Positions 1,709 to 46,050 are shown, counted from the first letter of the stretch. The stretch is DNA of 64,000 bases from an uncultured Ignavibacteria bacterium (GCA_964461835.1 CAYWVO010000014.1:6977-70976); one strand, 5' to 3'. The notes: generated by a model from the letters alone, not told the origin. A program made the numbers and translations.

Positions 1709-2506
1709 TTACCGTAGCGGCTTGGAGGCGGTGATATTCGCCGAAACGACAAAGTCATCAATCTTTTTGTCCGGTGCCCAATCCTTGATGAATTCACGGC
1801 TTTCGTCTTTCGGTTCCACCTTCACGTCGGTGAAACCACATTCGGCCAGCAAGGCGGTCAATCGGTCAATATGTTCGGCACCCGCGACACAGCCGCACAG
1901 CAGTTGCTCATCGTTTTTGACCTCTTCGGGAATTTCCGCCGTAGCGACCACATCGGAGATCGCCAGACGCCCACCGGGCTTTAACACGCGCAACGCCTCA
2001 CGATATACCGCCGCTTTGTCGGGAGAAAGGTTAATCACACAATTGGAGAGAATGACATCTACCGTCCCGTCGGCTACCGGCAAATGTTCGATTTCCCCGA
2101 GGCGAAAATCGACGTTCCGGTAATTCCCTTTGGCGGCGTTTTCACGGGCGGTGCGCACCATTTCCGGAGTCATATCCACTCCAATCACCTGCCCCCGGTC
2201 ACCGACACGTTTCGCGGCCAGAAAACAATCGAATCCACCGCCACAACCTAAGTCGAGGACCACTTCGCCGGGTTGCAACGCGGCAATGGCCTGAGGATTG
2301 CCGCAGCCCAGTCCCATATTGGATCCTTCGGGGACGTTTTGCAGGTCTTCCTGGGTATACCCCAAGCGGTCTGTCATAATTTGAACCGGCATGCCATGTG
2401 TATCACAGGGCTCGCCGCCCCCACAACATGAAGTCCCTTTGGTTGCCACGTCAGCATAACTCTTCTGCACAATTTCGCGCACCTGGTCGGCGGTCTTCTT
2501 CGCCAT
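1709..2506 (-). CDS. arsM: Arsenite S-adenosylmethionine methyltransferase.
   Basis: N-terminal CCGGG/Cys pair. SAM-binding motif VLDLGCGGGFD. Conserved C-terminal-region Cys in SNCVINL. Start chosen at the internal MAKKT Met (2504-2506); the ORF extends to 2602. Confidence 0.85.
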   Translation of the reverse strand: MAKKTADQVREIVQKSYADVATKGTSCCGGGEPCDTHGMPVQIMTDRLGYTQEDLQNVPEGSNMGLGCGNPQAIAALQPGEVVLDLGCGGGFDCFLAAKRVGDRGQVIGVDMTPEMVRTARENAAKGNYRNVDFRLGEIEHLPVADGTVDVILSNCVINLSPDKAAVYREALRVLKPGGRLAISDVVATAEIPEEVKNDEQLLCGCVAGAEHIDRLTALLAECGFTDVKVEPKDESREFIKDWAPDKKIDDFVVSANITASKPLR

Positions 2507-2608
2507 CTCGATACAGTCCTCGCCTGTGTTCAATAAACTCAGTACCTTGAGTAGATACGTACTCATGGCACAGGCTGAAGATGGGGAATGGCAGGAAGTC
2601 ACAACAGG

Positions 2609-9231: not shown

Positions 9232-11187
9232 TCAATTACGCACCGCTCGCATCTCGGCGATCATCTTATCGGGGCCAACCACTCCAATCAAGATTTTCTC
9301 GACCTCACCTTCTGAATTGAGCAGGAGTGTTGTCGGCAAGGAGTATTGCTTCAATCCGAAGCGTTCCATGAACGCTCGGGTTTCTGGTGAATTGGATTTT
9401 TCCAGTTGGATCTTCAACGGCACAAAATACTCCGCTTCGGCAATAACCGCTGGTCTGCTAAAAGTTCTCTTCTCCAGCACCTTGCAATTCGTACACCAAG
9501 TCGCCCAGGTATCAATTAATACTGGCTTATCTTCTTCACTGGCAAGCGCGAGACCTTCCTCCAAATCCGTATTCCAGGGGATACCGACATCTTGCGCGGT
9601 CATTGTCCCACTACCACCCATTGGCAGCCACTGGGCCGCAGGCGGCAAGATAAGTCCGCGCATGATTATCGTACCCAGAAGCAAATAGAGACCAATCAAC
9701 AGCGCCAGCACACCTACGAATTTTTTTACGCGGCCAAAAAAGCTGGTCTCGGGAGTCAGCCGATCCAAGCCACCGCCAAAAACACCCAGCGCCGTGAGCA
9801 GCAGTCCGGCAAGAACTGCTATGATGGTGGGTGACACGATCGTCCGTATAAAATAGAGCGCCATCAAAAGCAGGACGAAACCGAAGAACTTGTTCACCGA
9901 TTCCATCCACAGGCCCGCATTGGGCAGTTTATTGATCGCTGTCGAAAAGGTACCGATGATCACGAACAACGTCCCCAGCCCCAAAGCGAAAATAAACAGC
10001 ACCAAAAATCCCAGCACCGGTGAACCACTGGTAGCGATATAAAGCAAAATACCGGCGACGAAGGGGCCCACGCAGGGGGAGATCACCAGCGCGGCGACAA
10101 TGCCCAGCACAATCGCGCCGCCGACACCGCCGCCGGACTGCGCTCCACCCAGTTTGTTGCGAATCGCAGCGGGGACCTGCAGCTCATACAGGCCGAACAT
10201 GGACAGGGCAAAGATGACGAAAACCACGGCGATGCCAATGACGACCGGCGGACTGGCCAGCCAAGCACCGAATACTCCGCCGACCAGCGAGACAACAAGC
10301 CCCATCAGTCCGTACACCAGGGCCATCGATCCAACATAAAACAAGGAAAGCGCAAAACCCTTGCCCACGGTGCGATCCTGCCCCGCAAATACGCTGACCG
10401 TGATAGGAATCATCGGATACGTGCAGGGCGAAAAAGAAAGCAGCAGGCCGGTGATAAAGGCCAATCCCAGGGCAATGAAATACCCCCAGAATCCATGCCG
10501 GTCAATCAAACGCTGGAGGTCAGAGGTCGGCGGCGATGTTTCTGTTGCTGATCCGTCGACATCACCGGTTGCCCTTGTCGGTTTCTCGGTTTCCGTTGAG
10601 AACATATGTTGCGCCGTCGCCTCGCCATTGGGGCCCACCGCGACCGCTAATTGCACTGTGTCGGTCTGCGGTGCCCGGCACTCTCGGTCATTGCACGGTT
10701 GGTAGGTGAAATGCAGCCGAACCGTGTACTCTCCATCCGCAGCAGTCTCGGCAATTCGGACGGAAAACGGGATCACGGTTTGCCCCTCGTAGACCGACAT
10801 GATCTCGCCCATCAGGGAAACATCGTGTCCCACAGGGTATTGACGGCCGAAGGGAATCAGGGTCTCGGTGGTGTCAAAGGTCAACTCTGCTGCGATGAGC
10901 CAGTCTTCCTTCGGCTGGGCGGAATTAATGTGCCATCCATCGGCCACGGTAACAACCAATGCGGCGGGATGTGTCTCACCGGGAGACGCTGCTGTCCGGG
11001 AGAAAATGGCGTTGGTTGTAACCAATTCCGCAGCCGGCTCATCGATGACGCCGGGGGGAGGCGCCCCAAGGATCACACCGGAACCTGCCAGGTAACAGAA
11101 CAAACCGATGATAACGGTAATGATTTGGTAACGAACGCTGTTTTCTACATCTCTGCTCTTTCCCACGATTTCCTCCGGCCCGGGCAT
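9232..11187 (-). CDS. dsbD: Thiol:disulfide interchange protein DsbD.
   Basis: 651 aa. N-terminal DsbD-alpha-like periplasmic domain; central CcdA-type TM core with two conserved Cys (SFSPCTYP; ISPCVGP); C-terminal thioredoxin domain WCTNCK. Confidence 0.85.
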   Translation of the reverse strand: MPGPEEIVGKSRDVENSVRYQIITVIIGLFCYLAGSGVILGAPPPGVIDEPAAELVTTNAIFSRTAASPGETHPAALVVTVADGWHINSAQPKEDWLIAAELTFDTTETLIPFGRQYPVGHDVSLMGEIMSVYEGQTVIPFSVRIAETAADGEYTVRLHFTYQPCNDRECRAPQTDTVQLAVAVGPNGEATAQHMFSTETEKPTRATGDVDGSATETSPPTSDLQRLIDRHGFWGYFIALGLAFITGLLLSFSPCTYPMIPITVSVFAGQDRTVGKGFALSLFYVGSMALVYGLMGLVVSLVGGVFGAWLASPPVVIGIAVVFVIFALSMFGLYELQVPAAIRNKLGGAQSGGGVGGAIVLGIVAALVISPCVGPFVAGILLYIATSGSPVLGFLVLFIFALGLGTLFVIIGTFSTAINKLPNAGLWMESVNKFFGFVLLLMALYFIRTIVSPTIIAVLAGLLLTALGVFGGGLDRLTPETSFFGRVKKFVGVLALLIGLYLLLGTIIMRGLILPPAAQWLPMGGSGTMTAQDVGIPWNTDLEEGLALASEEDKPVLIDTWATWCTNCKVLEKRTFSRPAVIAEAEYFVPLKIQLEKSNSPETRAFMERFGLKQYSLPTTLLLNSEGEVEKILIGVVGPDKMIAEMRAVRN

Positions 11188-12249: not shown

Positions 12250-13080
12250 CTATTCGGTCTCGGAGAGTTTGGCGGAGGCTTTGTTCAAGGTCTCTTTTTC
12301 TTTTTCGGTAAGTCCTTCGTAACCAACCTCATTGATGCGATCCAGGACTCGGTCAACTTCGGCCATAAAATCAGCGTTGCGCTCCAATTTACGACGGGCC
12401 CGTTTTTTTTTCCGGCGGAGCCGGCGGTTTCGTAACCAGCCGAAAGGCGACGGGAATTTGAGTTTTCCCTCGTTGCGCAGCATATATAGAAAACCGATCA
12501 GCACCCCGCCCAAGTGTGTGATATGGGCGACATTACCCGCACCAGGCCGCCCGGCCACCGCCAGGAGATCAACGATGATCAAAAAGCCGACAAAGTATTT
12601 CGCCGGAACCGGAAACAGAAAATAGATATAGATCGGATTATTCGGCCAGGTTCGTGCGTAAGCGAACAACACGGCCAGAACGGCCCCCGAGGCGCCGATC
12701 ACCGGGATATTCATATTGAGCGGGATCAGCACCGTGATGACTCCGGCCCCGATACCGGTCACCAGGTAGTATTTCATAAATGCGCGCGTCCCCCAGGACA
12801 GCTCCAGGTTGCGGCCGAACATCCACAGGGCGAACAGGTTAAAAAGGATGTGGAAAAAGCCGCCGTGCAGCCACATATAAGTGCCAAGCTGCCAGATAAA
12901 ACCACGAGTCCAGACATCCGAGGCGCGCAAGCCGAAGGCATTGATCAAACCCGGGCCCGAGATCATCTGCAACAGGAAGACCAACGCATTGACAATGAGG
13001 ATGACCTTAATGCCCGGTGGCAGAAGCCCGCCGCCGAAACCCGGCTGCATGTAACTTGTGGATCGAAATCGATATCGCAT
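12250..13080 (-). CDS. Rhomboid-family intramembrane serine protease.
   Basis: GASGAV catalytic Ser motif and AHITHLGG catalytic His in the last TM; 6 TM. ~60-aa basic/coiled cytoplasmic C-terminal extension. Start may instead be the internal Met at 13050. Confidence 0.8.
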   Translation of the reverse strand: MRYRFRSTSYMQPGFGGGLLPPGIKVILIVNALVFLLQMISGPGLINAFGLRASDVWTRGFIWQLGTYMWLHGGFFHILFNLFALWMFGRNLELSWGTRAFMKYYLVTGIGAGVITVLIPLNMNIPVIGASGAVLAVLFAYARTWPNNPIYIYFLFPVPAKYFVGFLIIVDLLAVAGRPGAGNVAHITHLGGVLIGFLYMLRNEGKLKFPSPFGWLRNRRLRRKKKRARRKLERNADFMAEVDRVLDRINEVGYEGLTEKEKETLNKASAKLSETE

Positions 13081-13308: not shown

Positions 13309-13635
13309 CTATACCAGGATCGTGTCTACTTTTTCGACGATCTGCTGTTTGGGTACGGCGCCGATAAGCTGGTCGACCTTCTCACCATCTTTGAAAAACA
13401 GCAGACTCGGAATGGACATAATCTTATAGTTGGAGGCTGTCTGATTATTCTTGTCGACATCCATGCGGGCAACTTTCAATTTCCCATCGTATTCCTTGGC
13501 CAGCTCTTCCACAATTGGGTGGATCATCCGGCAGGGGCCACACCACACGGCCCAAAAATCGACGAGAACCGGTATATCAGACTTCAGAACTTCCGCTTCA
13601 AAATTCCCATCAGTGACTTCGATTGCCTCGGCCAT
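13309..13635 (-). CDS. trxA: Thioredoxin.
   Basis: 108 aa; WCGPC active site; strong RBS AAGGGAGG upstream. Confidence 0.92.
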   Translation of the reverse strand: MAEAIEVTDGNFEAEVLKSDIPVLVDFWAVWCGPCRMIHPIVEELAKEYDGKLKVARMDVDKNNQTASNYKIMSIPSLLFFKDGEKVDQLIGAVPKQQIVEKVDTILV

Positions 13636-13786: not shown

Positions 13787-15088
13787 TTACGACGCAGGTA
13801 CCGGAGTGAATCCAAGCGGTGCGGGATCAATTGCTGTTGGCGGCAAGACTCGTCCCACCAAAAAATGTGATCCGAACACTAGAATTAAGTCCTCGGGATC
13901 AGCGGCCGCACGAGCCTCACGGTACATGCGCTGCGGGTCTCGACTGGCGGCAAAGCGCAAACTCTGCTGCCGAGCAAATGATCGTACCTCGCCCAGACCC
14001 CAGGCACGACGATTGGGAAACCGCGTAAAATACCAGGAATCCACCAGCGGCGACAAGGTGCGAATCATAGTCGGCCAGCGCTTGTCCTTGGCGATGGCGC
14101 ACACCGCCAACACCCGACGTCCATTCACAACCCGTGACAGCGAATCCGCCAAGCCACGGGCGGCGGCCGCGTTATGCGCGACATCGAAAATAGTCAGCGG
14201 TTTCTCAGGCAACACCTGGAATCGTCCCGGCCACACCGTTACCCGCAAACCGTCCCGAATCGCTTTTTTTGTAAGCGAAACGCCACACGCGGGCAAATAA
14301 GACAGCGCAGCCAGAATGCCCGTCAAATTATCACGGTAAATGTCTCCCGGATAGCGCCAGGATATTCGCGATGGTAAGGTGCCGTTGGCTGATATGTCAT
14401 ACGCACCCGGCGCGAGACGGTCGCGCAAATCAAGGCACTGGGTAGCATCCACGAAAGGAGCAGAGCGTTGACAGGCAATCTTGGCGATGGCCTGGCGGGC
14501 CGATTCGGTCATCGGGCCACATACCACCGGAACACCCGGCTTAATGATGCCGGCCTTTTCGCCGGCGATCCGGACGCGCGTTCGACCGAGAGTCTTGGTA
14601 TGGTCGAGATCAATTGAGGTAATGACCGAAAGGATCGGCGTGACAATATTAGTCGCGTCTAAACGTCCACCCAGACCAACTTCCAAGACCGCAAGATCAC
14701 ATCCGGAGCGGGCAAACCAGTCAAATGCCATGGCGGTGGTAGTTTCGAAAAAAGTAATCCGGCGTTCGCGGATGAACGAACGGTGCTTTTTGATAAATGA
14801 ACTCACAAACCGGCGGGGAATCCGTTGCCCGTCCACGCGAATCCGCTCGCGATAATCCATTAAATGCGGTGAGGTAAATAAACCTGTTTTGTAACCCGCG
14901 GTACTCAATACGGCGGCCAGGCTGGAACACACCGTGCCTTTCCCATTCGTACCCGCCACGTGAATGATTTCAAGCTGATTCTGTGGGTTGCCGAGGCGGT
15001 CGGCAAAGGCCGTAATATTGTGCAATCCCAGTTTAACACCAAAACTCTCCAAGCCGAAGAGTATGTCGATTGCCTCGGAGTATCGCAT
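13787..15088 (-). CDS. folC: Bifunctional folylpolyglutamate synthase/dihydrofolate synthase.
   Basis: HVAGTNGKGT P-loop; Mur-ligase family architecture; 433 aa. Confidence 0.88.
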   Translation of the reverse strand: MRYSEAIDILFGLESFGVKLGLHNITAFADRLGNPQNQLEIIHVAGTNGKGTVCSSLAAVLSTAGYKTGLFTSPHLMDYRERIRVDGQRIPRRFVSSFIKKHRSFIRERRITFFETTTAMAFDWFARSGCDLAVLEVGLGGRLDATNIVTPILSVITSIDLDHTKTLGRTRVRIAGEKAGIIKPGVPVVCGPMTESARQAIAKIACQRSAPFVDATQCLDLRDRLAPGAYDISANGTLPSRISWRYPGDIYRDNLTGILAALSYLPACGVSLTKKAIRDGLRVTVWPGRFQVLPEKPLTIFDVAHNAAAARGLADSLSRVVNGRRVLAVCAIAKDKRWPTMIRTLSPLVDSWYFTRFPNRRAWGLGEVRSFARQQSLRFAASRDPQRMYREARAAADPEDLILVFGSHFLVGRVLPPTAIDPAPLGFTPVPAS

Positions 15089-15121
15089 CGGAGCCTCTGC
15101 TACCAGGGATGGCGGGAAAAA

Positions 15122-16015
15122 CTATTCGCTGGAGTCCTCTCGTAGTTCTTTCAGCGAGTCTTGGACGCCCGAGGCCGGGCCGCACAGGTACTTCAGCAGT
15201 TGTGCGATTGTTTCGCGAAGGTTTGATCGGGGGATAATGCAGTCCAGAAAACCATGGTTCTGGAAGAACTCTGATGATTGAAAACCTTCCGGCAGCTTCT
15301 GGCCGATTGTCTGCTGAATAACCCGTGGTCCCGCGAAACCCAACTGGGCTTTCGGCTCGGCAATGATGACGTCGCCCAGGCTCGCATACGAGGCCATCAC
15401 GCCGGCCGTGGTTGGATTGGTCAACACGGAAATGAACGGGATTCGCTCCTCCCGCAGTTGGCCGAGTAACGTGCCGGTCTTGGCCATCTGCATCAGGGAG
15501 AAAATCCCCTCCTGCATGCGGGCGCCGCCGGAACAACTGACGATCACCAGTGGAATCCGTCGCTCCAGTGCGCGCTCAATCGACCGGGCGACCTTCTCGC
15601 CGACGACTGATCCCATACTCCCGCCAATGAAGGCAAAATCCATGACGCTGAAGCTGACCGGCCGCCCGTCGATACGGCCTATGCCACAGACGACGGCATC
15701 TCGCATCCCGGATTTCTTCTGTGATTGAGCGATGCGCTCAGGATACGCTATACGATCACTGAATGTCAGGGGATCGGTGCTGCTCAGATCAGCGTCGAAC
15801 TCTTCCAGCCGGGCGTCATCGAGGAGCATTTCGATGTACTGGTGATGGCGAATCCGGAAATGGTATCCGCACGACGGGCAGACCCATAATTCACGCTCCA
15901 GTTCCTTGCCGAAGAGAATCTCCCCACAGTCTTTGCACTTCGTCCAGATCCCATCGGGGATTTCTTTTCTCTCCTGGCGCGAGATGCCCGATTTTGGTTT
16001 ACGGAACCATTCCAT
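15122..16015 (-). CDS. accD: Acetyl-CoA carboxylase carboxyltransferase beta subunit.
   Basis: N-terminal Zn ribbon CKDCGE...CPSCGYH followed by the carboxyltransferase domain; 297 aa. Confidence 0.9.
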   Translation of the reverse strand: MEWFRKPKSGISRQERKEIPDGIWTKCKDCGEILFGKELERELWVCPSCGYHFRIRHHQYIEMLLDDARLEEFDADLSSTDPLTFSDRIAYPERIAQSQKKSGMRDAVVCGIGRIDGRPVSFSVMDFAFIGGSMGSVVGEKVARSIERALERRIPLVIVSCSGGARMQEGIFSLMQMAKTGTLLGQLREERIPFISVLTNPTTAGVMASYASLGDVIIAEPKAQLGFAGPRVIQQTIGQKLPEGFQSSEFFQNHGFLDCIIPRSNLRETIAQLLKYLCGPASGVQDSLKELREDSSE

Positions 16016-16107
16016 AGATATTCTCTCACCTTTCGCCGTCGTACAGCGTGTCCAACATAGTCAGTTTTATGCGTTACAGCCAGCCAAAAGATGACATACG
16101 GGATGGA

Positions 16108-16575
16108 TTAGCCAGAGGCGAATTCCTTGAACATAATGACCGCATCTTCCACGGGTGAATCGTAGTACTGCGGTTGCACACCGATTTTTCGGTATCCGTG
16201 TGAAAGATAGAAGTCGATGGCAGATTGATTGGATGGCCGCACCTCCAAAATCGCACACAATTTGTGCTGTTGTCGGGCAAGGGATTCGGCATGATCCAGC
16301 AGTTGATGCCCGATCCCTTTTTTTCGGTAATCACGCGCGACAGCAATATTGTGGATATGTAACTCGTCACTCAACGCACCGGCACACAAGTATCCAACCA
16401 CCGTATCCCCAACCAGCGCAGCGAGATTGATGGTCCAGTCTTCCCGCAGCCAGTCCGCGAACACCGAGCGCGGCCAGGCATCGGTGAACGTCGCCGACTC
16501 AATACGATCAACCGCAGCGAGATCAGCAGCCGTTAAATCGCGGATTGTGCAATGCGTCAATTCGGCTTGTTCCAT
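16108..16575 (-). CDS. rimI: Ribosomal-protein-alanine N-acetyltransferase (GNAT).
   Basis: GNAT motifs (RKKGIGHQLL). Start at the internal Met 16575, overlapping the tsaB 3' end as is typical; the ORF is open to 16623. Confidence 0.75.
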   Translation of the reverse strand: MEQAELTHCTIRDLTAADLAAVDRIESATFTDAWPRSVFADWLREDWTINLAALVGDTVVGYLCAGALSDELHIHNIAVARDYRKKGIGHQLLDHAESLARQQHKLCAILEVRPSNQSAIDFYLSHGYRKIGVQPQYYDSPVEDAVIMFKEFASG

Positions 16576-17225
16576 TTGCGAAAACCCGGGGTTGGTCCGT
16601 AGTCCAACTGCCATTGACGCCAATTGATACTACCACCGGCGGCGATTTTCTTTGCGGCCAGTTCAACCAATGCTTTCCCCGCCTGTTCTCCACTTCCCGG
16701 GACAATTACGGTATTCTGCCTGAACTTATGGAGGACCTCCTGCGTTTTCCGATCATCGGAGACCGCAATAGTTTTCGGCACGTTTTCCAGTCGGGCGATC
16801 TCTTCGACCGACAAGACTGTTACGGGATGGAATTTATCCTGTCTGGCCGCGACTTCGCTCCAGTAGAACAAATCACCGCGACAGTGAATCAGGCAGCCCA
16901 GCGATTCAGACGACGACCCGTGGATTGCCCGCCATAATTCCAGCGTGGAGACCGGTGCAGTCGGTGTATCTGCGGCCGCCGCGAGACCCATGATGGTCGA
17001 AGCGCCGACTCGCAATCCGGTAAATGATCCCGGCCCGGAGACAACGGCAAAGCCGGTGATCTCCTCAAGTGAACTTCCTTGCTCTGCGAGAAAATCGATT
17101 ATAGCCTGTGGCAGCAGTTCGGCGTGTCGGCGGTGTGCATCGATAGTCTTTGCCACGGATACGTCATTGCGCAGTAATCCAAGATGTAAATTATCGCCGG
17201 CAGTATCCAACCCAAGGATAGTCAT
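16557..17225 (-). CDS. tsaB: tRNA t6A37 biosynthesis protein TsaB (YeaZ).
   Basis: MTILGLDTAGDNLHLGLL N-terminus; 222 aa. Confidence 0.85.
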   Translation of the reverse strand: MTILGLDTAGDNLHLGLLRNDVSVAKTIDAHRRHAELLPQAIIDFLAEQGSSLEEITGFAVVSGPGSFTGLRVGASTIMGLAAAADTPTAPVSTLELWRAIHGSSSESLGCLIHCRGDLFYWSEVAARQDKFHPVTVLSVEEIARLENVPKTIAVSDDRKTQEVLHKFRQNTVIVPGSGEQAGKALVELAAKKIAAGGSINWRQWQLDYGPTPGFRKWNKPN

Positions 17226-17677
17226 GCTGAATTTCCCGTTTTCGTCGGTTCCGCCGGTCGCTTCACGACAATTCGCCGTTGGGTTTCATTGAGCCGTTCA
17301 AAAACAATCAACCAGGTCAACGGTAACTGAGCATCCGGGAGATTTTCCACCCATTCAATGACCACGATTGCCTGGTCACGGGCAATATCTTCAAGCCCTA
17401 AATCCGCGAGCTCCTGCTCATGCCGCACCCGGTAGAGATCGACATGACACAGGGTGGATTCGCCCCGATAGATGTTCACGAGTGTAAAGGATGGCGAAAC
17501 AACCGAATCGGGTATGGCGAGTCCTACGGCCAGTCCCTGCACCCACGTCGTTTTGCCTGCGCCTAACGGCCCGGAGAGACCAATCCAGTCGCCCGGACGT
17601 ACCCGGACGGCAAACGTGCGGGCATGGCGCTGCATCTCGTCGGGCGAGGAGAATGTTGCCTGTTCGACTGCGATCAT
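17222..17677 (-). CDS. tsaE: tRNA t6A37 biosynthesis ATPase TsaE (YjeE).
   Basis: GPLGAGKTT Walker A; 151 aa; ATGA overlap with tsaB. Confidence 0.85.
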   Translation of the reverse strand: MIAVEQATFSSPDEMQRHARTFAVRVRPGDWIGLSGPLGAGKTTWVQGLAVGLAIPDSVVSPSFTLVNIYRGESTLCHVDLYRVRHEQELADLGLEDIARDQAIVVIEWVENLPDAQLPLTWLIVFERLNETQRRIVVKRPAEPTKTGNSA

Positions 17678-19236
17678 TTCGGGGTCAGGGTGGCCACCGG
17701 CAGGATCACCTCCGGCAGGCTGATGCCACCATGCTGGAATGTTCCCGCGAATCGCCTCTGATATTCATTGAATTGCGTCGGGTACACAAAGAAGAAATCG
17801 TCCTTGGCGATTAGGTAGGTGGTATTCATTGTAAAGGACGGCAACTTGTAGGCGCCGGGGTCGCGAATTGCCATCGACTCTTTCGGTTCGCCGTTGAGAT
17901 TGTCGCCATATTTGTAGCGCAGGTTGGTCGACGTATCCTTCTTTGCGCGGGCGATGGTGCCACGCTGCCCGAGAATACTGCCATGATCGGACGTGACCAC
18001 CACGACACAATCCTGCCGTGAGAGGAATTGCAGCACTTTGAACCAGGAGGAATTGGTAAACCAGGTTTTCATCAAATCCCGAAAGGCGCCCTGATCCGGC
18101 GCCAGTTCCCGCAGCAATTCGGATTCCGAACGACCGTGCACCAGGTTGTCGATGAAATTGTAAACCACGGAAAGCAACTGGGTGCTGGCGTAGGTGCCGA
18201 TCTGTTTGGCGAGCCGGTCGCCCTCGTCCTGGTCGAGTACTTTCACATATTTTGCCTCTGGTTTTAACCGAATTCCCAGACGAGCTAGCTGATCATCCAA
18301 TAGTTGCCGTTCGAGGCGATTGCGAGAAAACTCGTCCTTCGAGCCAATCTGCCATAGTTCGGGATGCAGCCTTTGCACGTCGGCGGGGAACAGTCCGGAA
18401 AAAATGGCATTGCGCGAAAACGGGGTAGCCGACGGCAGAATTGAGTAATAGTGATCTCGTTTGATGTTAAAAAGTTGCGCGACTTCCGGTTCGATATGCA
18501 GCCATTGATCCAGACTCATGCAGTCAATCACAAACAGGTACAGCTGCTTCCCCGCTTTTAGATGCGGAGCCACCCAGCGCTGCACCACATCGGTGGACAG
18601 GGGCGGCCGATCATCGCCGTCGTTGACCCAATCATAGTAATTGTTTTCCACGAACTTCGCGAACTCCGCCGACCACTGCCGTTGATGCTCGCGACGGATT
18701 TCATCCAGCCCTAGTTCGCGAAATCTATCGATATCCAAATCCCACGAAGAAAGTTTCAGGTGTGCATCGATCCAGTCCGCCCAGCCCATCGGACCGTACA
18801 GGCGGGCTTGCAGCGAGGCCAAATCCTGCGCGTATTGCCGCGAGAGATGTTCCGTGCGAATTTTGCCGGATTCCAAGTGCCGTTTGACAACCGAGAGGAT
18901 TTGTGATGGATTCACCGGTTTGGTGAGATAATCATCAATCTTTTTGCCGATCGCCTGTTCCATCAAATCTTCTTCTTCGGACTTGGTCACCATCACCACC
19001 GGCAAATTCGGTGACAGATGTTTGATTTCCTCCAGCGTGGAAAGCCCGTCCCGACCGGTCATCATTTCGTCCAGCAGGATAAGATCGTAGCGGTTCACGC
19101 CGATAAGTTCGAGTGCCTCATCGCCACTGGTCGCTCCATCAACCTGGTATCCGCGCTCCCGGAGGAAGACCAGATGTGATTCAAGGTGGTCTATCTCGTC
19201 GTCAACCCATAAGATTGACTTTGCTTGAGGCACCAT
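17674..19236 (-). CDS. porX: PorX-like response regulator: CheY receiver plus PglZ (alkaline-phosphatase-like) domain.
   Basis: N-terminal receiver (ILWVDDE...DLILLDEMM...TKP). Remaining ~390 aa match the PglZ-domain architecture and the ~520-aa size of T9SS regulator PorX. 4-bp overlap with tsaE. Confidence 0.75.
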   Translation of the reverse strand: MVPQAKSILWVDDEIDHLESHLVFLRERGYQVDGATSGDEALELIGVNRYDLILLDEMMTGRDGLSTLEEIKHLSPNLPVVMVTKSEEEDLMEQAIGKKIDDYLTKPVNPSQILSVVKRHLESGKIRTEHLSRQYAQDLASLQARLYGPMGWADWIDAHLKLSSWDLDIDRFRELGLDEIRREHQRQWSAEFAKFVENNYYDWVNDGDDRPPLSTDVVQRWVAPHLKAGKQLYLFVIDCMSLDQWLHIEPEVAQLFNIKRDHYYSILPSATPFSRNAIFSGLFPADVQRLHPELWQIGSKDEFSRNRLERQLLDDQLARLGIRLKPEAKYVKVLDQDEGDRLAKQIGTYASTQLLSVVYNFIDNLVHGRSESELLRELAPDQGAFRDLMKTWFTNSSWFKVLQFLSRQDCVVVVTSDHGSILGQRGTIARAKKDTSTNLRYKYGDNLNGEPKESMAIRDPGAYKLPSFTMNTTYLIAKDDFFFVYPTQFNEYQRRFAGTFQHGGISLPEVILPVATLTPK

Positions 19237-19280
19237 GGTTTTCCACCCCCAATGTGTGATCAGTGTGCATCTGCACCGGG

Positions 19281-20570
19281 TTACTGCGACGTCGGCAGTT
19301 CAATAACGAATTCCGTTCGTTCCCCCGGAATACTCTCTGCAATGTAGATACGTCCGTTATGGTATTCTGCAACAATGCGACGTGACAACGTTAATCCGAG
19401 ACCCCAGCCGCGCTTCTTGGACGTCTGACCCGGACTGAACACTTTCTTAGAGATATTGGCGGGTATCCCGCGTCCGTTATCCACCACGCGGATAATTGCC
19501 AGGCCATTTTCTTCGTCATGTTCAAGGCTGACATCGATTTGTCCCGTGCGCGAGTCGACCGCTTCCAGAGAGTTTTTAATGAGGTTTTCCAAGACCCAAC
19601 TGATCAATTCGGCATTGGCCACCGCCGTCACCGGGGTATCCGCCCGAACAGTTAATTTTGCGCCCTTACCCCGGAACGGCAGTCGCGCCCTAAAATATTC
19701 AGCAGTAGAGAGAATGATCTCACGGAGGTCCACTGCTTCGCGATGCGGTTCCGACCCAATCAAGCCAAACCGGTTGGCCACTTGTTCTAACCGCTTGGTA
19801 TCAGTAAACATACGATTTAGAATCTGGTCGATTGAGGCACCGTTATTCGCCTCCATCGAAATTTTTCCACTGCGGTTGCGTTCACGCATAATTTCCAGCC
19901 ACCCCAGCAGCGACGACAAAGGCGTTCCTAATTGATGGGCGGTTTCCTTGGCCATTCCGACCCAGATATATCGCTGTTCGGCTTGCTTAAGATTGCGAAA
20001 ACCGAAATACGCGATCGCCAGGAAGAGGACAACCAGGCCAACCTCCACAAACGGTAACAGTTGCAGGTTGCGAATCAGGCGGTAATTCCCGTAATGGATA
20101 TAGTGCAGTACCTCACCCGCGTAGGTAATTGGAACCGGAGGGTAATGGTCATCCATCGATCTGACAATCCGCCGGACTTTCTCGACCGTTTCCGGATCCC
20201 GCTGGATGTCGGAATCCGGCACTCCTTCCAGTTCACGCCAGTGGAGCGGATTGTTCTGCGGATCGGTCACCACCAGGGGAAACGACCGCTTCTGGATGAT
20301 CTCCTCGAACAGAAAGCCCGTGATGGCTTCCGATTGCGATTCCACCGCCCGCCGCCACTGGTCGGCGTAGTTCATGGCCATCCGCTGTTCGGCGCGCTTA
20401 AGCTGGGTAACGACTGTCTGGGTATACCACGCCAGCACGGCCGCAATAACCGCGACACCAAAGATCAAGAATCCCTTGAAAATCAGCGGTAGGCCGGTGT
20501 ACCCCGTGGGATCGTGGAAAATCATCCAACCGCGATGGCGATGGCTCTTTTGTGACATATCTCTTTGCAC
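19281..20570 (-). CDS. porY: Sensor histidine kinase, PorY-like.
   Basis: Two N-terminal TM helices; H-box ETAHQLGTPLSSLLGWLEIM; G boxes DNGRGIP and GWGLGL. It sits immediately upstream of porX. Confidence 0.75.
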   Translation of the reverse strand: MQRDMSQKSHRHRGWMIFHDPTGYTGLPLIFKGFLIFGVAVIAAVLAWYTQTVVTQLKRAEQRMAMNYADQWRRAVESQSEAITGFLFEEIIQKRSFPLVVTDPQNNPLHWRELEGVPDSDIQRDPETVEKVRRIVRSMDDHYPPVPITYAGEVLHYIHYGNYRLIRNLQLLPFVEVGLVVLFLAIAYFGFRNLKQAEQRYIWVGMAKETAHQLGTPLSSLLGWLEIMRERNRSGKISMEANNGASIDQILNRMFTDTKRLEQVANRFGLIGSEPHREAVDLREIILSTAEYFRARLPFRGKGAKLTVRADTPVTAVANAELISWVLENLIKNSLEAVDSRTGQIDVSLEHDEENGLAIIRVVDNGRGIPANISKKVFSPGQTSKKRGWGLGLTLSRRIVAEYHNGRIYIAESIPGERTEFVIELPTSQ

Positions 20571-20593
20571 ATCGGCGTCACGGGGAGCGCCGT

Positions 20594-21862
20594 TTAGCCG
20601 ATTTCTTCTTCACCACCGACGTAGGGGCGGAGTTTCTCCGGGATGCGTACCGTACCCCGTTCGGTTTGATGGTTTTCGATTAAGGCGATCATGGTGCGCG
20701 GCAAGGCAAGACCGGAACCGTTGAGCGTGTGCGGAAACTGCGGTTTTCCCTTGGGGGCCGGTCGAAACCGCAAATTCATCCGGCGGGCCTGGAAATCAAG
20801 GAAATTCGAGCAGGAAGATACCTCGAGGTAATTTTCCATCCCAGCTGCCCAGACCTCCAGGTCGTAACATTTCGCGGCGGCAAAGGAGAGATCACCGGTG
20901 GCCAATACTCGCACCCGGTACGGCAACTCCAGGGACTGCAAAATATCTTCAGCGTCGGCGGTGAGTGATTCTAATTCGTCATACGACTGTTCCGGCGGCA
21001 CGATTTTGACCAGTTCTACTTTGTCGAATTGATGTACCCGAATCATGCCCCGGGTATCTTTGCCGTGTGCACCCGCCTCCCGGCGAAAACATGGGGTGTA
21101 GGCCACATAGTTGATCGGCAGGTGTTCGGCTTTCAATAATTCACGCGCATGCAGGTTGGTGACCGGAACTTCGGCGGTGGGGATCAGATACAAGTCATCA
21201 CCGGTGAGGTGATACATATCCTCCGCCAGTTTCGGGAGTTGTCCGGTGCCGGTCATGGTTTCCGAGGTCACCAGATACGGCACCCGCAGTTCGGTATACC
21301 CGTGGGCGACATGTCGATCGATCATAAAATTGATCAGCGCGCGTTGGAGCCGGGCGCCCCGCCCGGTTAGGGCAAAAAACCCGGTGCCGGAAACTTTCGC
21401 GCCGCGGGCGAGGTCCAAGATCCCCAGTTTTTCTCCCAACTCCCAGTGCGGCGCGGGCTTGAAGGAAGACTCGGGCATTTTGCCGTAGCTACGGATGTCT
21501 ACATTACAGGATTCATCTCCCACGGGCACCGAGCTATCCGGAATGTTGGGCACCCAGAGCAGTCTTTCGTGGAGCTCCTGTTCAATTCCCCGGCGCTGTT
21601 CATCAATGTCGCTGATTTTTTGAGAGACTGATTTCATCGCGGCAATCTGCTCAGACGCATTTTCCCCAGCTTTTTTCTTTTTGGCAATTTCGGCCGAGGC
21701 GGTATTCAGCTGTTGTTTCAGTTGGTCGCCCTCGGCGATATTCGCGCGGCGCTGCTGATCGAGCTGCAGAATGCCGTCAAGATCAATAGCTGTATTTTTC
21801 CGTTCGGCGGCGGTTTGCACCAAGTCAGGATTTTGACGAATGAATTTTATATCCAGCATCAA
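20594..21862 (-). CDS. serS: Seryl-tRNA synthetase.
   Basis: 422 aa; N-terminal coiled-coil plus class II core; MLDIKFIRQNPDLV start region. Confidence 0.92.
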   Translation of the reverse strand: MMLDIKFIRQNPDLVQTAAERKNTAIDLDGILQLDQQRRANIAEGDQLKQQLNTASAEIAKKKKAGENASEQIAAMKSVSQKISDIDEQRRGIEQELHERLLWVPNIPDSSVPVGDESCNVDIRSYGKMPESSFKPAPHWELGEKLGILDLARGAKVSGTGFFALTGRGARLQRALINFMIDRHVAHGYTELRVPYLVTSETMTGTGQLPKLAEDMYHLTGDDLYLIPTAEVPVTNLHARELLKAEHLPINYVAYTPCFRREAGAHGKDTRGMIRVHQFDKVELVKIVPPEQSYDELESLTADAEDILQSLELPYRVRVLATGDLSFAAAKCYDLEVWAAGMENYLEVSSCSNFLDFQARRMNLRFRPAPKGKPQFPHTLNGSGLALPRTMIALIENHQTERGTVRIPEKLRPYVGGEEEIG

Positions 21863-24383: not shown

Positions 24384-25802
24384 TCATGATCGGGCAGTCG
24401 TAGTCGTCGCCCCTTCGGGCAGTGTTTCCAGCACATCCGATCGTTCGGTCATTGCGCGGGCCACCTCTGCCGTGATCAGCCCGCGTTTGGCCAATTGTCG
24501 CAAAGACACATCAAACCCGTGCATACCTGCCGCGCTCCCTGTTTGAATCAAGGTCGGCAGTTGACTTAATCGCATATCCCGAATGACAGCGCGGACCGCC
24601 GGTGTGCCGATCAGAACTTCGGTCGCGACTGCCAACCCGGCGTTATCAGCCCGCGGCAGCAGCCGCTGGCAGACGATCCCGCGCAGGCCGCCGGCAAGCT
24701 GCACCGCTGCTTCCTGACGCTGGTCCGGGGGATATAAACCCAAGATGCGGTGGATGGTTTGCGTGGTATTTGAGGTATGCAGGCTGGTGAGAACGAGGTG
24801 TCCGGTCTCGGCGGCATTGAGCGCCACGGAAAGCGTTTGCCGATCACGGATTTCGCCGATGAATATCACATCCGGGTCCTGCCGCAGCAGGTTCTTTAAA
24901 CCTAAGCTGAAAGACCGGGTATCCCGGCCAACTTCCCGTTGCTTGACCACGGAGCGCTTGCCGGGATGAATAAATTCAATCGGATCTTCCAGGGTAATAA
25001 TGACTTTGCGAAACTCGGCATTAATCAAGTCAATCATGGCCGCCAGCGTCGTACTCTTGCCTACCCCGGTCGGTCCGGCAACGATCACTAATCCATCCGG
25101 CAACCGTGCCAAATCATTGACCACCGGCGGTAATCCCAAACGTTCCAGCGATTTCACCTCCAAATCAATCGCCCGATACGTTGCTTCCACTACTCCCTGC
25201 TGGAAATGCACATTCACCCGCCAGCGACCGATATCCGGAATCGTCAAGGCGAAATTGGCCTCCCGCATCAATTCGAACTGTCGTACCTGCTCGGCATCCA
25301 TAACCGAGTAAACGAGCCGTTTAATCTGATCGGCAGAGAGTACCTTGGTTCCCTGGGGAAACAACTCTTTCTGGATCCGAAACAGCGGCGGTCGCCCAAC
25401 GGAGAGGTGCAAATCGGACGCCTCCTTATCCAGCATGCTGGATAAGAGATTGATAATATCAATTGACGAGATATGCTGACGTAATTTCGCCCGGGTATTC
25501 TCATCCAGTACATCGAATTGGACACCGACAAAATACCCCTCCTCACCACGTTCGGTGATGTGTACCACCCGTGCTTCAAACTCCAGTACCATCTGCGGAT
25601 GTGGAATCGGCAAGGTGAAGTTTAATTCGCTGCCGATGGGCAATCGTTCTGCGGTGAAGAACCGCATGCCGCTGAATGAGATATCCTTGGTGTACCCACG
25701 AATATCCCTGGTCTGGCTTTTTAGACGGTAGGTCAGGGCATAGTCGGTTTGGATACGGCGTTCCGTACGTCGTTCCTCACCACAAAAATCTGGGGATACC
25801 AT
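24384..25802 (-). CDS. pilT: Twitching-motility ATPase PilT with an N-terminal PilZ (c-di-GMP-binding) domain.
   Basis: PilZ motifs RRTERR and DISFSGMRF in the first ~110 aa. PilT/PilU core follows, with Walker A GPTGVGKST. ATG 25802 preceded by GGAGGA; the ORF is open to TTG 25835. Confidence 0.85.
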   Translation of the reverse strand: MVSPDFCGEERRTERRIQTDYALTYRLKSQTRDIRGYTKDISFSGMRFFTAERLPIGSELNFTLPIPHPQMVLEFEARVVHITERGEEGYFVGVQFDVLDENTRAKLRQHISSIDIINLLSSMLDKEASDLHLSVGRPPLFRIQKELFPQGTKVLSADQIKRLVYSVMDAEQVRQFELMREANFALTIPDIGRWRVNVHFQQGVVEATYRAIDLEVKSLERLGLPPVVNDLARLPDGLVIVAGPTGVGKSTTLAAMIDLINAEFRKVIITLEDPIEFIHPGKRSVVKQREVGRDTRSFSLGLKNLLRQDPDVIFIGEIRDRQTLSVALNAAETGHLVLTSLHTSNTTQTIHRILGLYPPDQRQEAAVQLAGGLRGIVCQRLLPRADNAGLAVATEVLIGTPAVRAVIRDMRLSQLPTLIQTGSAAGMHGFDVSLRQLAKRGLITAEVARAMTERSDVLETLPEGATTTTARS

Positions 25803-25905
25803 GCAATCCTCCGGTTGCTTCGCGAAAACGGACAAACCTCAGGACCGGATCGGTCCTGCTCTCAGTATCGGCTGTCGACACGAAATGATTCAATCACCAA
25901 CGAAG

Positions 25906-35587: not shown

Positions 35588-37872
35588 CCCGGTTCGCCGA
35601 TCCTCAGGCCGACCCGCGGAAATCATCCACTGCGGCGAGCGAAAAAACCGTCATTCGCGTGGCCCTTGCTGGAAACCCTAACTCGGGCAAAACGAGTCTC
35701 TTCAACGCGCTCACCGGCGCACGCCAACACATCGGAAACTATCCGGGGGTCACGGTCGAAAAGAAGCAGGGCGTGGTTGAATACGGGAACTATCGCATTG
35801 AATTTGTCGATCTGCCCGGCACCTATTCATTAACAGCGTATTCCCTGGAAGAAGTCGTCGCACGCGATTATCTGCTCAAACAAACGCCGGACCTGGTAGT
35901 CGATGTCATCGACACCACCAATCTGGAACGAAACCTCTATCTCCTTCTGCAATTTCAGGAACTTCAGGTGCCCGTCATCGGCGCGCTGAATATGATCGAT
36001 GAGGCAGAACGGCGCGGGATTGAGATTGACGATCAGCAGTTGGACAAGATTCTGGGCATTCCCTTTGTCCGCACGGTGGGACGTACCGGCCGGGGCAAGT
36101 TCGATTTGCTGCGCAAGATCGTCCAGGTCGCGGAGGGCGAAATTGATACCAGCGCCCGCCACTTAAATTACGGCGCCGAACTGGAAAAGCAGCATCACGT
36201 AATCAGCGAAGTACTTGAAACTGATCCCGGCTTCACCAGCAAGTATCCAGCGCATTGGGTGGCAATCAAACTGCTGGAAGAGGATGATGACGCGTATCTG
36301 AAGGTCAGGACGGAACATCGGTATTCCGATGACGTCCTGGCGGTTGCCGAGAAATCACGGGAGTGGGTGGCCAACCATTTTGGCGAGGACAGTCCCACGG
36401 TAGTCGGCGAACAACGCTATGCCTATATCCGGGGTGCCGTTCGAGAAACGGTGGTGGTTGATCGGACCCGTAAACGCATCGATTTTACCGAAAAAATCGA
36501 CGCCGTCATCCTAAACCGCTACCTCGGTGTGTTAATTTTCTTTGGCATCATGTATGCAATGTATGTCGGGGTGTTCACCATTGGCAATCCCGCGGGCGAG
36601 GCGCTGGAGTCGGTTTTTGCCTGGCTGGGTGCTCAGGCCCGCTTGATTCTGCCCGAAGGGATGGTTGCCGATCTCATCGTCGACGGCATCATCGGCGGGG
36701 TCGGCGGTGTTTTGACCTTTTTCCCTATCGTCATCCTGCTGTTCTTGGGACTCTCCTTTCTCGAAGACATCGGCTACATGGCCCGAGCGGCCTTTGTGAT
36801 GGATAAGTTCTTCCACCTCTTCGGGATGCATGGCCGGAGTTTTATCCCATTCATGCTATCTACCGGGTGTGCAGTCCCCGGCGTGATGAGTGCGCGCACG
36901 TTAGTAAACCCCCGGGATCGCATCATCACGGTGCTGGTAGCTCCAATGCTTGTATGTGGCGCCAAGACACCGGTGCTGGCCATGTTTGCCGCGGCGTTTT
37001 TCCCGGAACACGCCGGCGAAGTTTTCTGGGGCATCTGGTTCCTCGGCTGGTTGTTGGCCTTTGTTGCTGGATGGGTTTTTCGAAAGACGCTTTTTCGCGG
37101 AGAATCTTCGCCGTTCGTGATGGAGCTACCGCCCTACCGATTTCCGACCGTGCGCGGTATCCTGACCCATATGTGGGACCGGGGCTGGATGTATGTCCGC
37201 AAAGCGGGAACAATTATTCTCTCCATCTCGATCATCATGTGGTTTCTGCTCTATTTCCCCAAGCCCGCAGAGTACTCCAAGGATTATAATGCTCTCCGGC
37301 AAACGGTCGAAACCACATACCAGCAAAACATCAAAACCTCTGAGCCCGTTCAAGACGCGATAGACGACAACGCAGCAATGGAACTACAGATACAAGCCCA
37401 GCTCGAATATGAATCAGCGCGAGACCGGCAACTGGCTACACTCGATACCCAGCAGGCAGCGGAAGAAATTGACGCCAGTGTCGCGGGACGGGTCGGCCAC
37501 GCACTGGAGCCGATTTTCCGACCCGCGGGATTCGATTGGAAACTCAATATCGGCCTGTTCGCGGGATTCGTCGCCAAAGAGGTGCTGGTATCTACCATGG
37601 CCATCGTGTACGGCATCAGTGACGGCTCCAATACCGAGACTGAGAGCCTAAAATCTCAACTCATTGCCGATCCTCACTATTCTCCTGCCACCGCACTGGC
37701 GCTGATGGTTTTTGCACTCATCTATGCTCCGTGCCTGGCAGTTCAAGCAGTAATCCGTAAAGAACTGGGCAGTTGGAAGTGGTCCGCTCTTTCGCTGGGC
37801 TACACCGTGGTCTTAGCCTGGATCCTGGCCGTTATTGTCCACCAGGGAGCCACACTGGCCGGTCTTGGTTGA
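35584..37872 (+). CDS. feoB: Ferrous iron transporter B.
   Basis: G-protein domain GNPNSGKTSLFNALTG plus a polytopic membrane domain; 762 aa; ATGA overlap with feoA. Confidence 0.92.
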   Translation: MTRFADPQADPRKSSTAASEKTVIRVALAGNPNSGKTSLFNALTGARQHIGNYPGVTVEKKQGVVEYGNYRIEFVDLPGTYSLTAYSLEEVVARDYLLKQTPDLVVDVIDTTNLERNLYLLLQFQELQVPVIGALNMIDEAERRGIEIDDQQLDKILGIPFVRTVGRTGRGKFDLLRKIVQVAEGEIDTSARHLNYGAELEKQHHVISEVLETDPGFTSKYPAHWVAIKLLEEDDDAYLKVRTEHRYSDDVLAVAEKSREWVANHFGEDSPTVVGEQRYAYIRGAVRETVVVDRTRKRIDFTEKIDAVILNRYLGVLIFFGIMYAMYVGVFTIGNPAGEALESVFAWLGAQARLILPEGMVADLIVDGIIGGVGGVLTFFPIVILLFLGLSFLEDIGYMARAAFVMDKFFHLFGMHGRSFIPFMLSTGCAVPGVMSARTLVNPRDRIITVLVAPMLVCGAKTPVLAMFAAAFFPEHAGEVFWGIWFLGWLLAFVAGWVFRKTLFRGESSPFVMELPPYRFPTVRGILTHMWDRGWMYVRKAGTIILSISIIMWFLLYFPKPAEYSKDYNALRQTVETTYQQNIKTSEPVQDAIDDNAAMELQIQAQLEYESARDRQLATLDTQQAAEEIDASVAGRVGHALEPIFRPAGFDWKLNIGLFAGFVAKEVLVSTMAIVYGISDGSNTETESLKSQLIADPHYSPATALALMVFALIYAPCLAVQAVIRKELGSWKWSALSLGYTVVLAWILAVIVHQGATLAGLG

Positions 37873-37946
37873 TTCTGTCCTTATCTGACTTTCAGTCTAC
37901 AAAAGGAACTCTCCACCTTGCCGATATTCAAAAGCGAGGGAATGGT

Positions 37947-39689: not shown

Positions 39690-39720
39690 TAGTAACTCTT
39701 TCACTCCCTGAGGATTCCTG

Positions 39721-40932: not shown

Positions 40933-41057
40933 CTCCGTTAGCGCTTACCGTTCAGCGGTGCCACCCGATAAGATTTTTTTCGACCTGACCGATAATAGAA
41001 ATGACCTTAGCCGGTCGAGTGGTGGAGGATAGTAAACTTTTAACAGGAGTGATCCGC

Positions 41058-41495
41058 ATGCGTCAAGTTCGTGGGTTAATGCGCAACCCTGCCGGTTTTA
41101 CGCTGATCGAGCTGGTGATCATCATCGTGGTTCTGGGAATTTTGGCCGCGGTGGCGATCCCGAAATACTTCGACATGGTGAGCGATGCCAAAGAATCGGC
41201 CTGTCGTGGCGCATTGGGGGGCCTGCGCTCAGCGGTATCAATCTGGTATGCCAAAGAAGCCTTGGAGACGGGAACGGCAAGTTGGCCGCCGATTGACTCG
41301 CTGCAGACTGTCGGGATTGTCATGGAACAAAGCATTCCGCCCAATCCGTACCAGTCCGATGACAGCGCGCCGGATTCGATTGTCACCGGCGTGACCAAAG
41401 GTACGACAGTCGGTAGCCGGGGCGGCTGGGCCTACAACCCGTCGACCGGTGAGATCTGGCCGAACACCTCGGTTGCCGGTGAGAACAACTGGTAA
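41058..41495 (+). CDS. Type IV pilin (major pilin candidate).
   Basis: Prepilin N-methylation motif GFTLIELVIIIVVLGILAA. 146 aa. ATG 41058 with AGGAG RBS. Confidence 0.8.
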   Translation: MRQVRGLMRNPAGFTLIELVIIIVVLGILAAVAIPKYFDMVSDAKESACRGALGGLRSAVSIWYAKEALETGTASWPPIDSLQTVGIVMEQSIPPNPYQSDDSAPDSIVTGVTKGTTVGSRGGWAYNPSTGEIWPNTSVAGENNW

Positions 41496-41613
41496 TTGCA
41501 GGTCGACCGAGACGGACGGATTTTCTTTGGAACGTACCGGGTTCAGTAGCGACAATGAGCCCGTCTTTCGTCCCACCATCTTCCCCAGGTGGATCGGCTG
41601 GAGAGGTGTCGGC

Positions 41614-42057: not shown

Positions 42058-42065
42058 GCGGGAGC

Positions 42066-43235: not shown

Positions 43236-43271
43236 GAAAGCATAATGGAATTTCATTCAGAGTAACGTACC

Positions 43272-45541: not shown

Positions 45542-45554
45542 CCGGATAAGAACG

Positions 45555-46049: not shown

Positions 46050-46050
46050 G

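Follow-up and report, generated by a model that had tools for sequence, protein, structure and literature searches.

Does a sensor histidine kinase gene lying directly beside porX encode the partner of PorX, and does it matter that porX in turn runs into genes for tRNA modification? These questions are raised by positions 16,108 to 20,570 of a 64,000-nucleotide stretch of DNA from an uncultured Ignavibacteria bacterium (GCA_964461835.1, CAYWVO010000014.1:6977-70976), hereafter the window. [quoted passage not shown] Here, we hold with considerable confidence that the window carries orthologues of both in a linked and probably ancestral arrangement, inside a conserved same-strand string of genes reaching from serS to folC. 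The PorXY system itself and the adjacency of porX to a tsaE-family gene in P. gingivalis are known, and the window presents the system in a linked configuration. The most useful output is comparative, namely the synteny of porX and tsaE across the Fibrobacterota-Chlorobiota-Bacteroidota (FCB) superphylum and the linkage of porY to porX outside Bacteroidota.

Identity of PorX

The 520-aa receiver plus PglZ protein of the window had been assigned the architecture of PorX, and this assignment is borne out by a family model, full-length structure matches and the catalytic residues. Its response regulator domain matches PF00072 with 89.8 bits and its C-terminal domain matches PglZ (PF08665) with 41.7 bits against a cutoff of 25 (Pfam), while the NCBIfam equivalog model T9SS_RR_PorX (NF052313) spans residues 7-520 of 520 with 615.8 bits against 300. 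The first-pass annotation would have been refuted by a C-terminal domain that fails to score as PglZ, which is thus not the case. A PDB search gave full-length alignments with PorX of P. gingivalis (7PV7), at 38% identity and E 5e-123, and with PorX of Flavobacterium johnsoniae (8TED), at E 2e-117. In the protein, a receiver (REC) domain is joined through a helical linker to a phosphodiesterase domain of the PglZ/alkaline-phosphatase type. As described for P. gingivalis PorX, D58 is the phospho-acceptor, T272 the nucleophile, and D239, D361, H365, D415 and H416 are the zinc ligands (PMC9757075). The corresponding residues in the window are D56, T271, D238, D363, H367, D417 and H418, and the phospho-acceptor, nucleophile and zinc-ligand positions are invariant in all 82 of the 82 aligned sequences. 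The closest named relatives are metagenome-assembled genomes (MAGs) of Candidatus Zixibacteria, with 58-64% identity. Judged from its sequence, the protein is a PorX orthologue, and its phosphodiesterase activity is predicted from the conservation of the active site.

PglZ domains are also core parts of bacteriophage exclusion (BREX) systems, and the protein could thus belong to a BREX/Pgl-type phage-defence system instead of regulating type IX secretion. The NCBIfam model BREX_PglZ_3 (NF033449) indeed gives a partial match of 94.1 bits, yet this is far under its cutoff of 250 and contrasts with the score of the PorX equivalog model. In addition, the window protein carries an N-terminal receiver, and its 520 aa fall within the 500-530 aa range of PorX, whereas the PglZ proteins of BREX have more than 600 aa (PMC9757075). 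The neighbours of porX, namely serS, the kinase gene, tsaE, tsaB and rimI, include no BREX gene. On score, architecture and gene context, the BREX assignment is rejected as extremely improbable.

Identity of the upstream kinase

The kinase gene upstream of porX encodes 429 aa from a GTG start, while the NCBI call is 414 aa long and starts at M16 (position 20525). Two hydrophobic segments, TM1 (~aa 27-50) and TM2 (~aa 169-190), enclose a periplasmic domain of ~118 aa (~aa 51-168), which is followed by the dimerisation and histidine phosphotransfer (DHp) domain and the catalytic and ATP-binding (CA) domain with no intervening cytoplasmic sensor domain. HATPase_c is matched with 71.4 bits and HisKA with 23.6 bits, slightly below the Pfam cutoff of 26.9.

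The first-pass annotation had called this two-transmembrane kinase PorY-like, and the comparison with PorY reference sequences, taken from the supplement of PMC7323717, extends the resemblance from end to end. The kinase shares 32% identity with P. gingivalis PorY (BAG34519) over 395 aa (227 bits, E 6e-74), and its first 200 residues, comprising TM1, the periplasmic domain and TM2, match P. gingivalis PorY with E 4e-13 and Rufibacter PorY with E 8e-19. Sensor domains diverge fast among paralogous kinases, and the match in this region therefore indicates orthology. As a control, a hidden Markov model (HMM) was built from nine Bacteroidota PorY sequences only and tested on the window and 80 related loci, described below. 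The window kinase scores 321.6 bits and the porX-linked kinases of other phyla 256-335 bits, while all other kinases in the window and the 80 loci stay at or below 85 bits, giving two separate groups. When the HMM is limited to the sensor, matches are confined to porX-linked kinases, with 68 bits for the window kinase. The His box, KETAH(212)QLGTPLSSL, is the same motif as P. gingivalis KETAHQLGTPISSL (KETAH193QLGTPISSL; H193), and H212 is invariant in 36 homologues. The closest named relatives are again Candidatus Zixibacteria MAGs, at ~45-53% identity, and by its PorX and kinase relatives the window most likely derives from this phylum or from a near relative within FCB. Look-ups of the exact sequences gave no record for the window PorX and, for the kinase, a single 5.4-kb contig of run SRR7048220. 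By the sequence comparisons with PorY, the window kinase is a genuine orthologue of PorY rather than just a PorY-like protein.

The AlphaFold model of the kinase (mean predicted local distance difference test score 79.7) shows TM2 continuous with the DHp helix (163-233) and a periplasmic module (~aa 51-168) with the order helix-helix-strand-strand-helix-strand-strand. From this order of secondary structure elements, the sensor may be PAS/PDC-like. A Foldseek search with the full model is dominated by kinase cores and PAS-kinase chimeras, from which the sensor fold is not rigorously assignable, and a PDB sequence search with the kinase returned generic kinase cores only and no PorY structure.

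It could be argued that the kinase is an unrelated sensor that happens to stand beside porX, the real partner being encoded elsewhere or PorX being activated by acetyl phosphate. Generic kinase models (AtoS, ZraS, KinD) match the window kinase at 70-87 bits, no curated PorY model is among the NCBIfam matches listed for it, and PorY has been doubted in print as the PorX kinase of P. gingivalis, in which the two genes are not linked and their mutants are not alike (PMC9757075). Against this stand the full-length similarity to P. gingivalis PorY, which includes the fast-evolving sensor, the restriction of sensor-only HMM matches to porX-linked kinases, and the spacing of kinase and porX, which are separated by at most 104 bp or overlap in 16 loci of several phyla. 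An unrelated sensor is thus very unlikely. Since the porY-porX adjacency repeats outside Bacteroidota, with porY immediately upstream of porX and sometimes overlapping it in several other phyla, it provides independent genomic support for PorY and PorX as a cognate pair.

Additional kinase-like open reading frames (ORFs) are found after accD, ~3.7 kb downstream of porX, in four of the related loci (L001, L003, L005 and L009), in tandem in L001, L005 and L009. They reach 54-85 bits against the PorY HMM and hence are not PorY; at the same place, the window carries folC, a thioredoxin gene and a rhomboid gene.

Gene organisation of the locus

Genes were called and junctions read directly from the window sequence. 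The string is encoded entirely on the minus strand and reads serS-porY-porX-tsaE-tsaB-rimI-accD-folC (Table 1), and the five genes from the kinase gene to rimI are tightly packed within 16108-20570. The stop of porX and the start of tsaE have a common ATGA, giving a 4-bp overlap, and the stop of tsaE and the start of tsaB likewise overlap in a common ATGA. The overlap of rimI with tsaB amounts to 19 bp counted from the rimI ATG at 16575 or to 4 bp counted from an in-frame TTGA, the longest ORF extending to 16623. The junctions described in the first-pass annotation, with porX overlapping tsaE and overlaps continuing through tsaB to rimI, can thus be read in the sequence, as can the adjacency of the kinase gene and porX, which are on the same strand with 44 bp between them. 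The gap between serS and the kinase gene is 23 bp, and further down, rimI and accD are separated by 92 bp and accD and folC by 33 bp. TsaE displays a Walker A motif (GPLGAGKT, aa 36), SPS (61), HVDLYR (78) and EW (108).

The succession of tsaE, tsaB and rimI, in that order, is a common bacterial operon for N6-threonylcarbamoyladenosine (t6A) modification of tRNA. Because of the overlaps and short gaps, we infer that porX shares a transcript with tsaE, tsaB and rimI and is probably coupled to them in translation as well, and the transcript is possibly part of a longer unit from serS to folC. Scanning 14800-22300 for promoters and terminators was uninformative, as 8 promoter-like and 10 terminator-like sites were found against 4.9 and 7.7 expected, and none of them lies inside an intergenic gap.

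Synteny across the FCB superphylum

A pattern scan with the PorX alignment, using one genome per GTDB species, gave 80 loci with PorX at 40-55% identity; these rank highest among more than 593 matches to the window PorX and so form a biased sample and no census. The loci include Zixibacteria, Eisenbacteria, Latescibacterota, Fibrobacterota, Ignavibacteria, Chlorobi-labelled MAGs, Calditrichota, Marinimicrobia, Cloacimonadota, KSB1, Rhodothermota/Balneolaceae, Gemmatimonadota and Bacteroidota, the last with cultured Pedobacter, Belliella and Marinoscillum. Neighbouring ORFs were called and searched with HMMs seeded from the window proteins; 75 of the 80 loci were assessable. The longest-ORF rule over-extends ORFs in the high-GC Gemmatimonadota and Eisenbacteria, and the large apparent overlaps there are artefacts that are not interpreted.

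A tsaE gene follows porX directly on the same strand in 61 of the 75 assessable loci, from at least 14 labelled lineages, mostly with a spacing of -4 to +21 bp and with the identical 4-bp overlap in 14 loci. TIGR00150 is matched by the window TsaE and by 60 of these ORFs downstream of porX. The next gene is less constant, as tsaB follows tsaE in 36/58 loci. Within Bacteroidota, tsaE keeps with porX (14/15 loci) rather than with its enzymatic partner tsaB (4/14). The main exception is Gemmatimonadota, where tsaE follows porX in only 1/8 loci.

A porY orthologue is found directly upstream of porX in 16 of the 75 loci and within 6 kb in four more. The adjacent pairs belong to Zixibacteria, Eisenbacteria, Latescibacterota, Fibrobacterota, one Poribacteria-labelled chromosome and some unclassified MAGs. 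No porY adjoins porX in the Bacteroidota-labelled loci (0/15) or in those labelled Ignavibacteria proper, Chlorobi, Rhodothermota, Marinimicrobia or Calditrichota, with the exception of three uncultured 'Ignavibacteriales'-labelled MAGs, which show the Zixibacteria-type layout with porY beside porX. Around this core, 14 related loci have serS upstream of porY, and AccD is encoded downstream of porX in 37, a 38th AccD match being upstream (L060), and the complete order serS-porY-porX-tsaE-tsaB-rimI-accD is found again in several phyla. Neither the porY-porX nor the porX-tsaE arrangement is therefore peculiar to the window genome; linkage of this kind is shared by several phyla, and for poorly studied ones the order from serS to accD is a useful annotation marker. 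In a literature search that omitted most subscription journals, no report was found of cross-phylum porX-tsaE adjacency, of linked porY-porX or of PorX or T9SS in Zixibacteria; queries that also covered other phyla outside Bacteroidota gave just the 2026 study of P. gingivalis discussed below (PMC13241743).

Some individual loci deserve mention. The porY and porX orthologues of a genome labelled Candidatus Poribacteria (L032:8410-11554) overlap by 23 bp, with no tsaE after them. Poribacteria are not usually counted in the FCB group, and the pair could have arrived by horizontal transfer or indicate that PorXY is more widely distributed. In a contig labelled Candidatus Limnocylindria, a class of Chloroflexota (L019), the genes stand in the FCB-type order serS...porY...porX-tsaE-rimI-accD. 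This contig is very similar to the Eisenbacteria loci and has probably been mis-binned. The Gemmatimonadota loci with porX but no tsaE after it are L061, L062, L064-L066, L075 and L078, in which ORF calls are unreliable owing to the high GC content; in L062, a 617-aa ORF begins 3 bp after porX.

Signalling and the PorX-TsaE link

By analogy with P. gingivalis and F. johnsoniae, PorY of the window would sense a periplasmic cue through its ~118-aa domain with a PAS/PDC-like order of elements, autophosphorylate on H212 and pass the phosphate to D56 of PorX. Phosphorylated PorX would then dimerise, which would switch on the zinc-dependent PglZ phosphodiesterase (T271) as well as contacts with the secretion motor of the T9SS and with a sigma factor, as with PorL and SigP in P. 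gingivalis. Through its position, porX would at the same time share the transcription of the housekeeping genes tsaE-tsaB and rimI, probably with translational coupling. The cue of P. gingivalis PorY is the C-terminal domain (CTD) of PorA (PMC12152298), and PorY phosphorylates PorX in vitro (PMC4800418). For the window pair, specific transfer from PorY to PorX is predicted, with indirect support from the 44-bp adjacency and the 16 other adjacent loci.

While the first-pass annotation correctly tied porX to t6A genes, in that a tsaE-family gene adjoins and overlaps it, this tie is in itself not new. A study of P. gingivalis (PMC13241743, J Biol Chem 2026) places ubK1, a member of the TsaE/YjeE/YdiB family, downstream of porX in 81 strains and reports in vitro phosphorylation of PorX Tyr79 by UbK1. 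The neighbourhood analysis in that study is confined to P. gingivalis genomes.

Several points count against reading the locus as a working PorY-PorX system with a functional tie to TsaE and type IX secretion. Neither the Y79A exchange nor the deletion of ubK1 has more than little effect on secretion in P. gingivalis (PMC13241743). The UbK1 target Tyr79 corresponds to N77 in the window PorX and is a tyrosine in 2/82 aligned orthologues, and 7/8 Gemmatimonadota loci are without tsaE after porX. The 80-locus sample is skewed towards non-Bacteroidota lineages. Co-transcription is deduced from overlaps and short gaps, with promoter and terminator scans not above chance, and doubt has been raised over PorY as the physiological PorX partner in P. 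gingivalis (PMC9757075). As for secretion, Pfam or NCBIfam scans of nearly all ORFs of at least 150 aa found a type IV pilus-like cluster and housekeeping genes but no T9SS core gene in the 64-kb window, where the signs of a T9SS are two CTD cargo proteins only.

Tyr79 was considered as the basis of a conserved porX-tsaE link and rejected, as the residue is not conserved. A PorX-TsaE link therefore cannot depend on it. As the adjacency, unlike the phosphorylated residue, is kept in at least 14 labelled lineages, a functional connection, if real, would be older and work differently. The adjacency could instead be inherited gene order without function, porX merely fronting an old tsaE-tsaB-rimI operon and gaining at most constitutive expression. 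This would fit the lack of conservation of the phosphosite, on which PMC13241743 agrees, the normal gingipain secretion of PorX Y79A and the at most modest effect of deleting ubK1 (PMC13241743). The loss of adjacency in most Gemmatimonadota loci points the same way. Moreover, the tsaE-tsaB-rimI order is common in bacteria without PorX, for example as ydiB-ydiC-ydiD in Bacillus subtilis. Inherited order does not, however, readily account for a porX-tsaE pair kept in 61/75 loci at 40-55% PorX identity, while neighbouring links decay in the same set (tsaB after tsaE 36/58, porY adjacent 16/75, serS 14), nor for the Bacteroidota, in which tsaE stays with porX and not with tsaB, nor for the recurrence of the ATGA overlap in 14 loci. 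A direct biochemical interaction of PorX with UbK1 has, furthermore, been shown in P. gingivalis (PMC13241743). Gene order without function is thus a serious possibility, although it falls somewhat short of probable.

Because the pair is retained over the FCB superphylum whereas other links are lost, an old functional PorX-TsaE connection, older than Bacteroidota, is likely. More specifically, and only tentatively, it could be speculated that PorX and TsaE form an ancient FCB-wide module in which the T9SS regulator, or its oligonucleotide phosphodiesterase signalling, is coupled to the t6A ATPase, for which a protein kinase role has been described as well, through a site of contact or modification other than Tyr79, with linked porY-porX ancestral outside Bacteroidota and PorY the true cognate kinase.

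The role of a T9SS master regulator would be an extrapolation from P. gingivalis. The presence of T9SS cargo in the same window, noted in the first-pass annotation, stands, as two C-termini match the type A sorting domain model TIGR04183 above its cutoff (Table 1). PorY and PorX might nevertheless control something else here, such as the turnover of nucleotide second messengers or physiology linked to translation, the T9SS name having been transferred from P. gingivalis. Such a role would agree with the lack of T9SS core genes in the window scans, with the cleavage of cyclic and linear oligoadenylates by PorX (PMC9757075), with the modest secretion role of F. johnsoniae PorX and the roles beyond T9SS that have been proposed (PMC13241743), and with the translation and housekeeping genes around porX. 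The two sorting-domain proteins argue against it, as do comparative genomics, in which porX and porY occur together with T9SS genes (Sato 2010, cited in PMC10951265), and the report that PorX is always present with a T9SS (PMC9757075). We consider an output unrelated to type IX secretion unlikely.

Other genes in the window

Upstream of serS, the window encodes a fusion of a sugar-transferase-like membrane region with a UDP-sugar dehydratase, while a rhomboid-family protease, a separate thioredoxin gene and a DsbD-like transporter are located downstream of the string (Table 1). The type IV pilus or type II secretion system (T2SS)-like cluster comprises a PilB/MshE-type ATPase with an N-terminal cyclic di-GMP-binding motif (NF053729, 73.5 bits), a T2SSF protein similar to PilC, two pseudopilins carrying N_methyl motifs, a secretin and several ORFs without a family match.

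Table 1. Positions of the genes and clusters discussed, counted from the first letter of the window.
Feature	Position	Strand	Evidence or remark
arsenite methyltransferase homologue	1709..2602	-	NF008823, 354 bits (cutoff 263)
DsbD-like thiol-disulfide transporter with thioredoxin domain	9232..11187	-	downstream of string
rhomboid-family protease	12250..13080	-	weak rhombosortase match, 32 bits, below cutoff
thioredoxin	13309..13635		separate gene
folC	13787..15088	-	TIGR01499, 363.2 bits (cutoff 162.65)
accD	15122..16015	-	TIGR00515, 383.6 bits (cutoff 317.45)
rimI, ribosomal protein S18-alanine N-acetyltransferase	16108..16575	-	TIGR01575, 111.2 bits (cutoff 86.4)
tsaB, t6A dimerisation subunit	16557..17225	-	TIGR03725, 118.3 bits (cutoff 69.3)
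tsaE, t6A ATPase, YjeE/YdiB/UbK family	17222..17677	-	TIGR00150, 86.9 bits (cutoff 60.1); PF02367, 112.3 bits
porX orthologue, 520 aa	17674..19236	-	NF052313, 615.8 bits (cutoff 300)
porY orthologue, sensor histidine kinase	19281..20570	-	HATPase_c, 71.4 bits; HisKA, 23.6 bits
serS, seryl-tRNA synthetase	20594..21862	-	TIGR00414, 511.7 bits (cutoff 301.65); heads string
fusion of WbaP/EPS sugar-transferase-like membrane region and PseB/CapD-type UDP-sugar 4,6-dehydratase, 778 aa	21919..24255	-	upstream of serS
PilT/PilU-family ATPase	24384..25835	-	TIGR01420, 410 bits; N-terminal PilZ-like TIGR02266 (aa 34-123)
protein with HEAT-type repeats (NblB/CpcE-similar), 668 aa	28114..30120	-	C-terminal cyclophilin-type peptidyl-prolyl isomerase
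type IV pilus/T2SS-like gene cluster	37773..47355	+	components in text
several ORFs of this cluster	42066..45541		no family match
secretin of this cluster	45955..47355		
predicted T9SS cargo, 1890 aa	56428..62100	+	TIGR04183, 37.9 bits (cutoff 23); type A sorting domain aa 1807-1886
predicted T9SS cargo, 447 aa	62152..63495	+	TIGR04183, 42.6 bits (cutoff 23); type A sorting domain aa 365-444

Comparison with known systems

The PglZ proteins of BREX/Pgl systems have the alkaline-phosphatase-superfamily domain (PF08665) in common with the window PorX but, unlike it, are without a receiver domain, exceed 600 aa and stand in a defence-gene context. P. gingivalis PorX has the same REC, helical linker and PglZ architecture, and at 38% full-length identity all its catalytic and metal-binding residues are kept in the window. 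P. gingivalis PorY shares with the window kinase the two-transmembrane, periplasmic sensor, DHp and CA architecture, and the 32% identity includes the sensor and the KETAHQLGTP His box. The difference lies in gene arrangement, as porX and porY occupy separate loci in P. gingivalis (PMC4800418), whereas the window pair, from another phylum, probably Zixibacteria, is separated by 44 bp on one strand. The porX-ubK1 pair of P. gingivalis resembles the window in that a TsaE-family gene directly follows porX (PMC13241743), and the UbK/TsaE motifs Walker A, SPT/S, HxDxYR and EW are all present in the window TsaE. In contrast, Tyr79, the UbK1 phosphosite, is replaced by Asn77, and the succession of tsaE by tsaB and rimI marks the window tsaE as a housekeeping t6A gene, unlike the P. 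gingivalis pair.

PorX of F. johnsoniae (PDB 8TED, 8P6F; PMC10951265) is a full-length homologue with the same three-part architecture, and a modest influence on secretion is reported for it (cited in PMC13241743). The sampled Bacteroidota loci are without an adjacent porY (0/15), whereas the window has one. Finally, the canonical t6A operon is tsaE-tsaB-rimI(-tsaD), represented by ydiB-ydiC-ydiD-gcp in B. subtilis. The window shows the same tsaE-tsaB-rimI order with overlapping frames, yet differs from the canonical operon in that porX is joined to its 5' end by the 4-bp overlap and tsaD is not adjacent.

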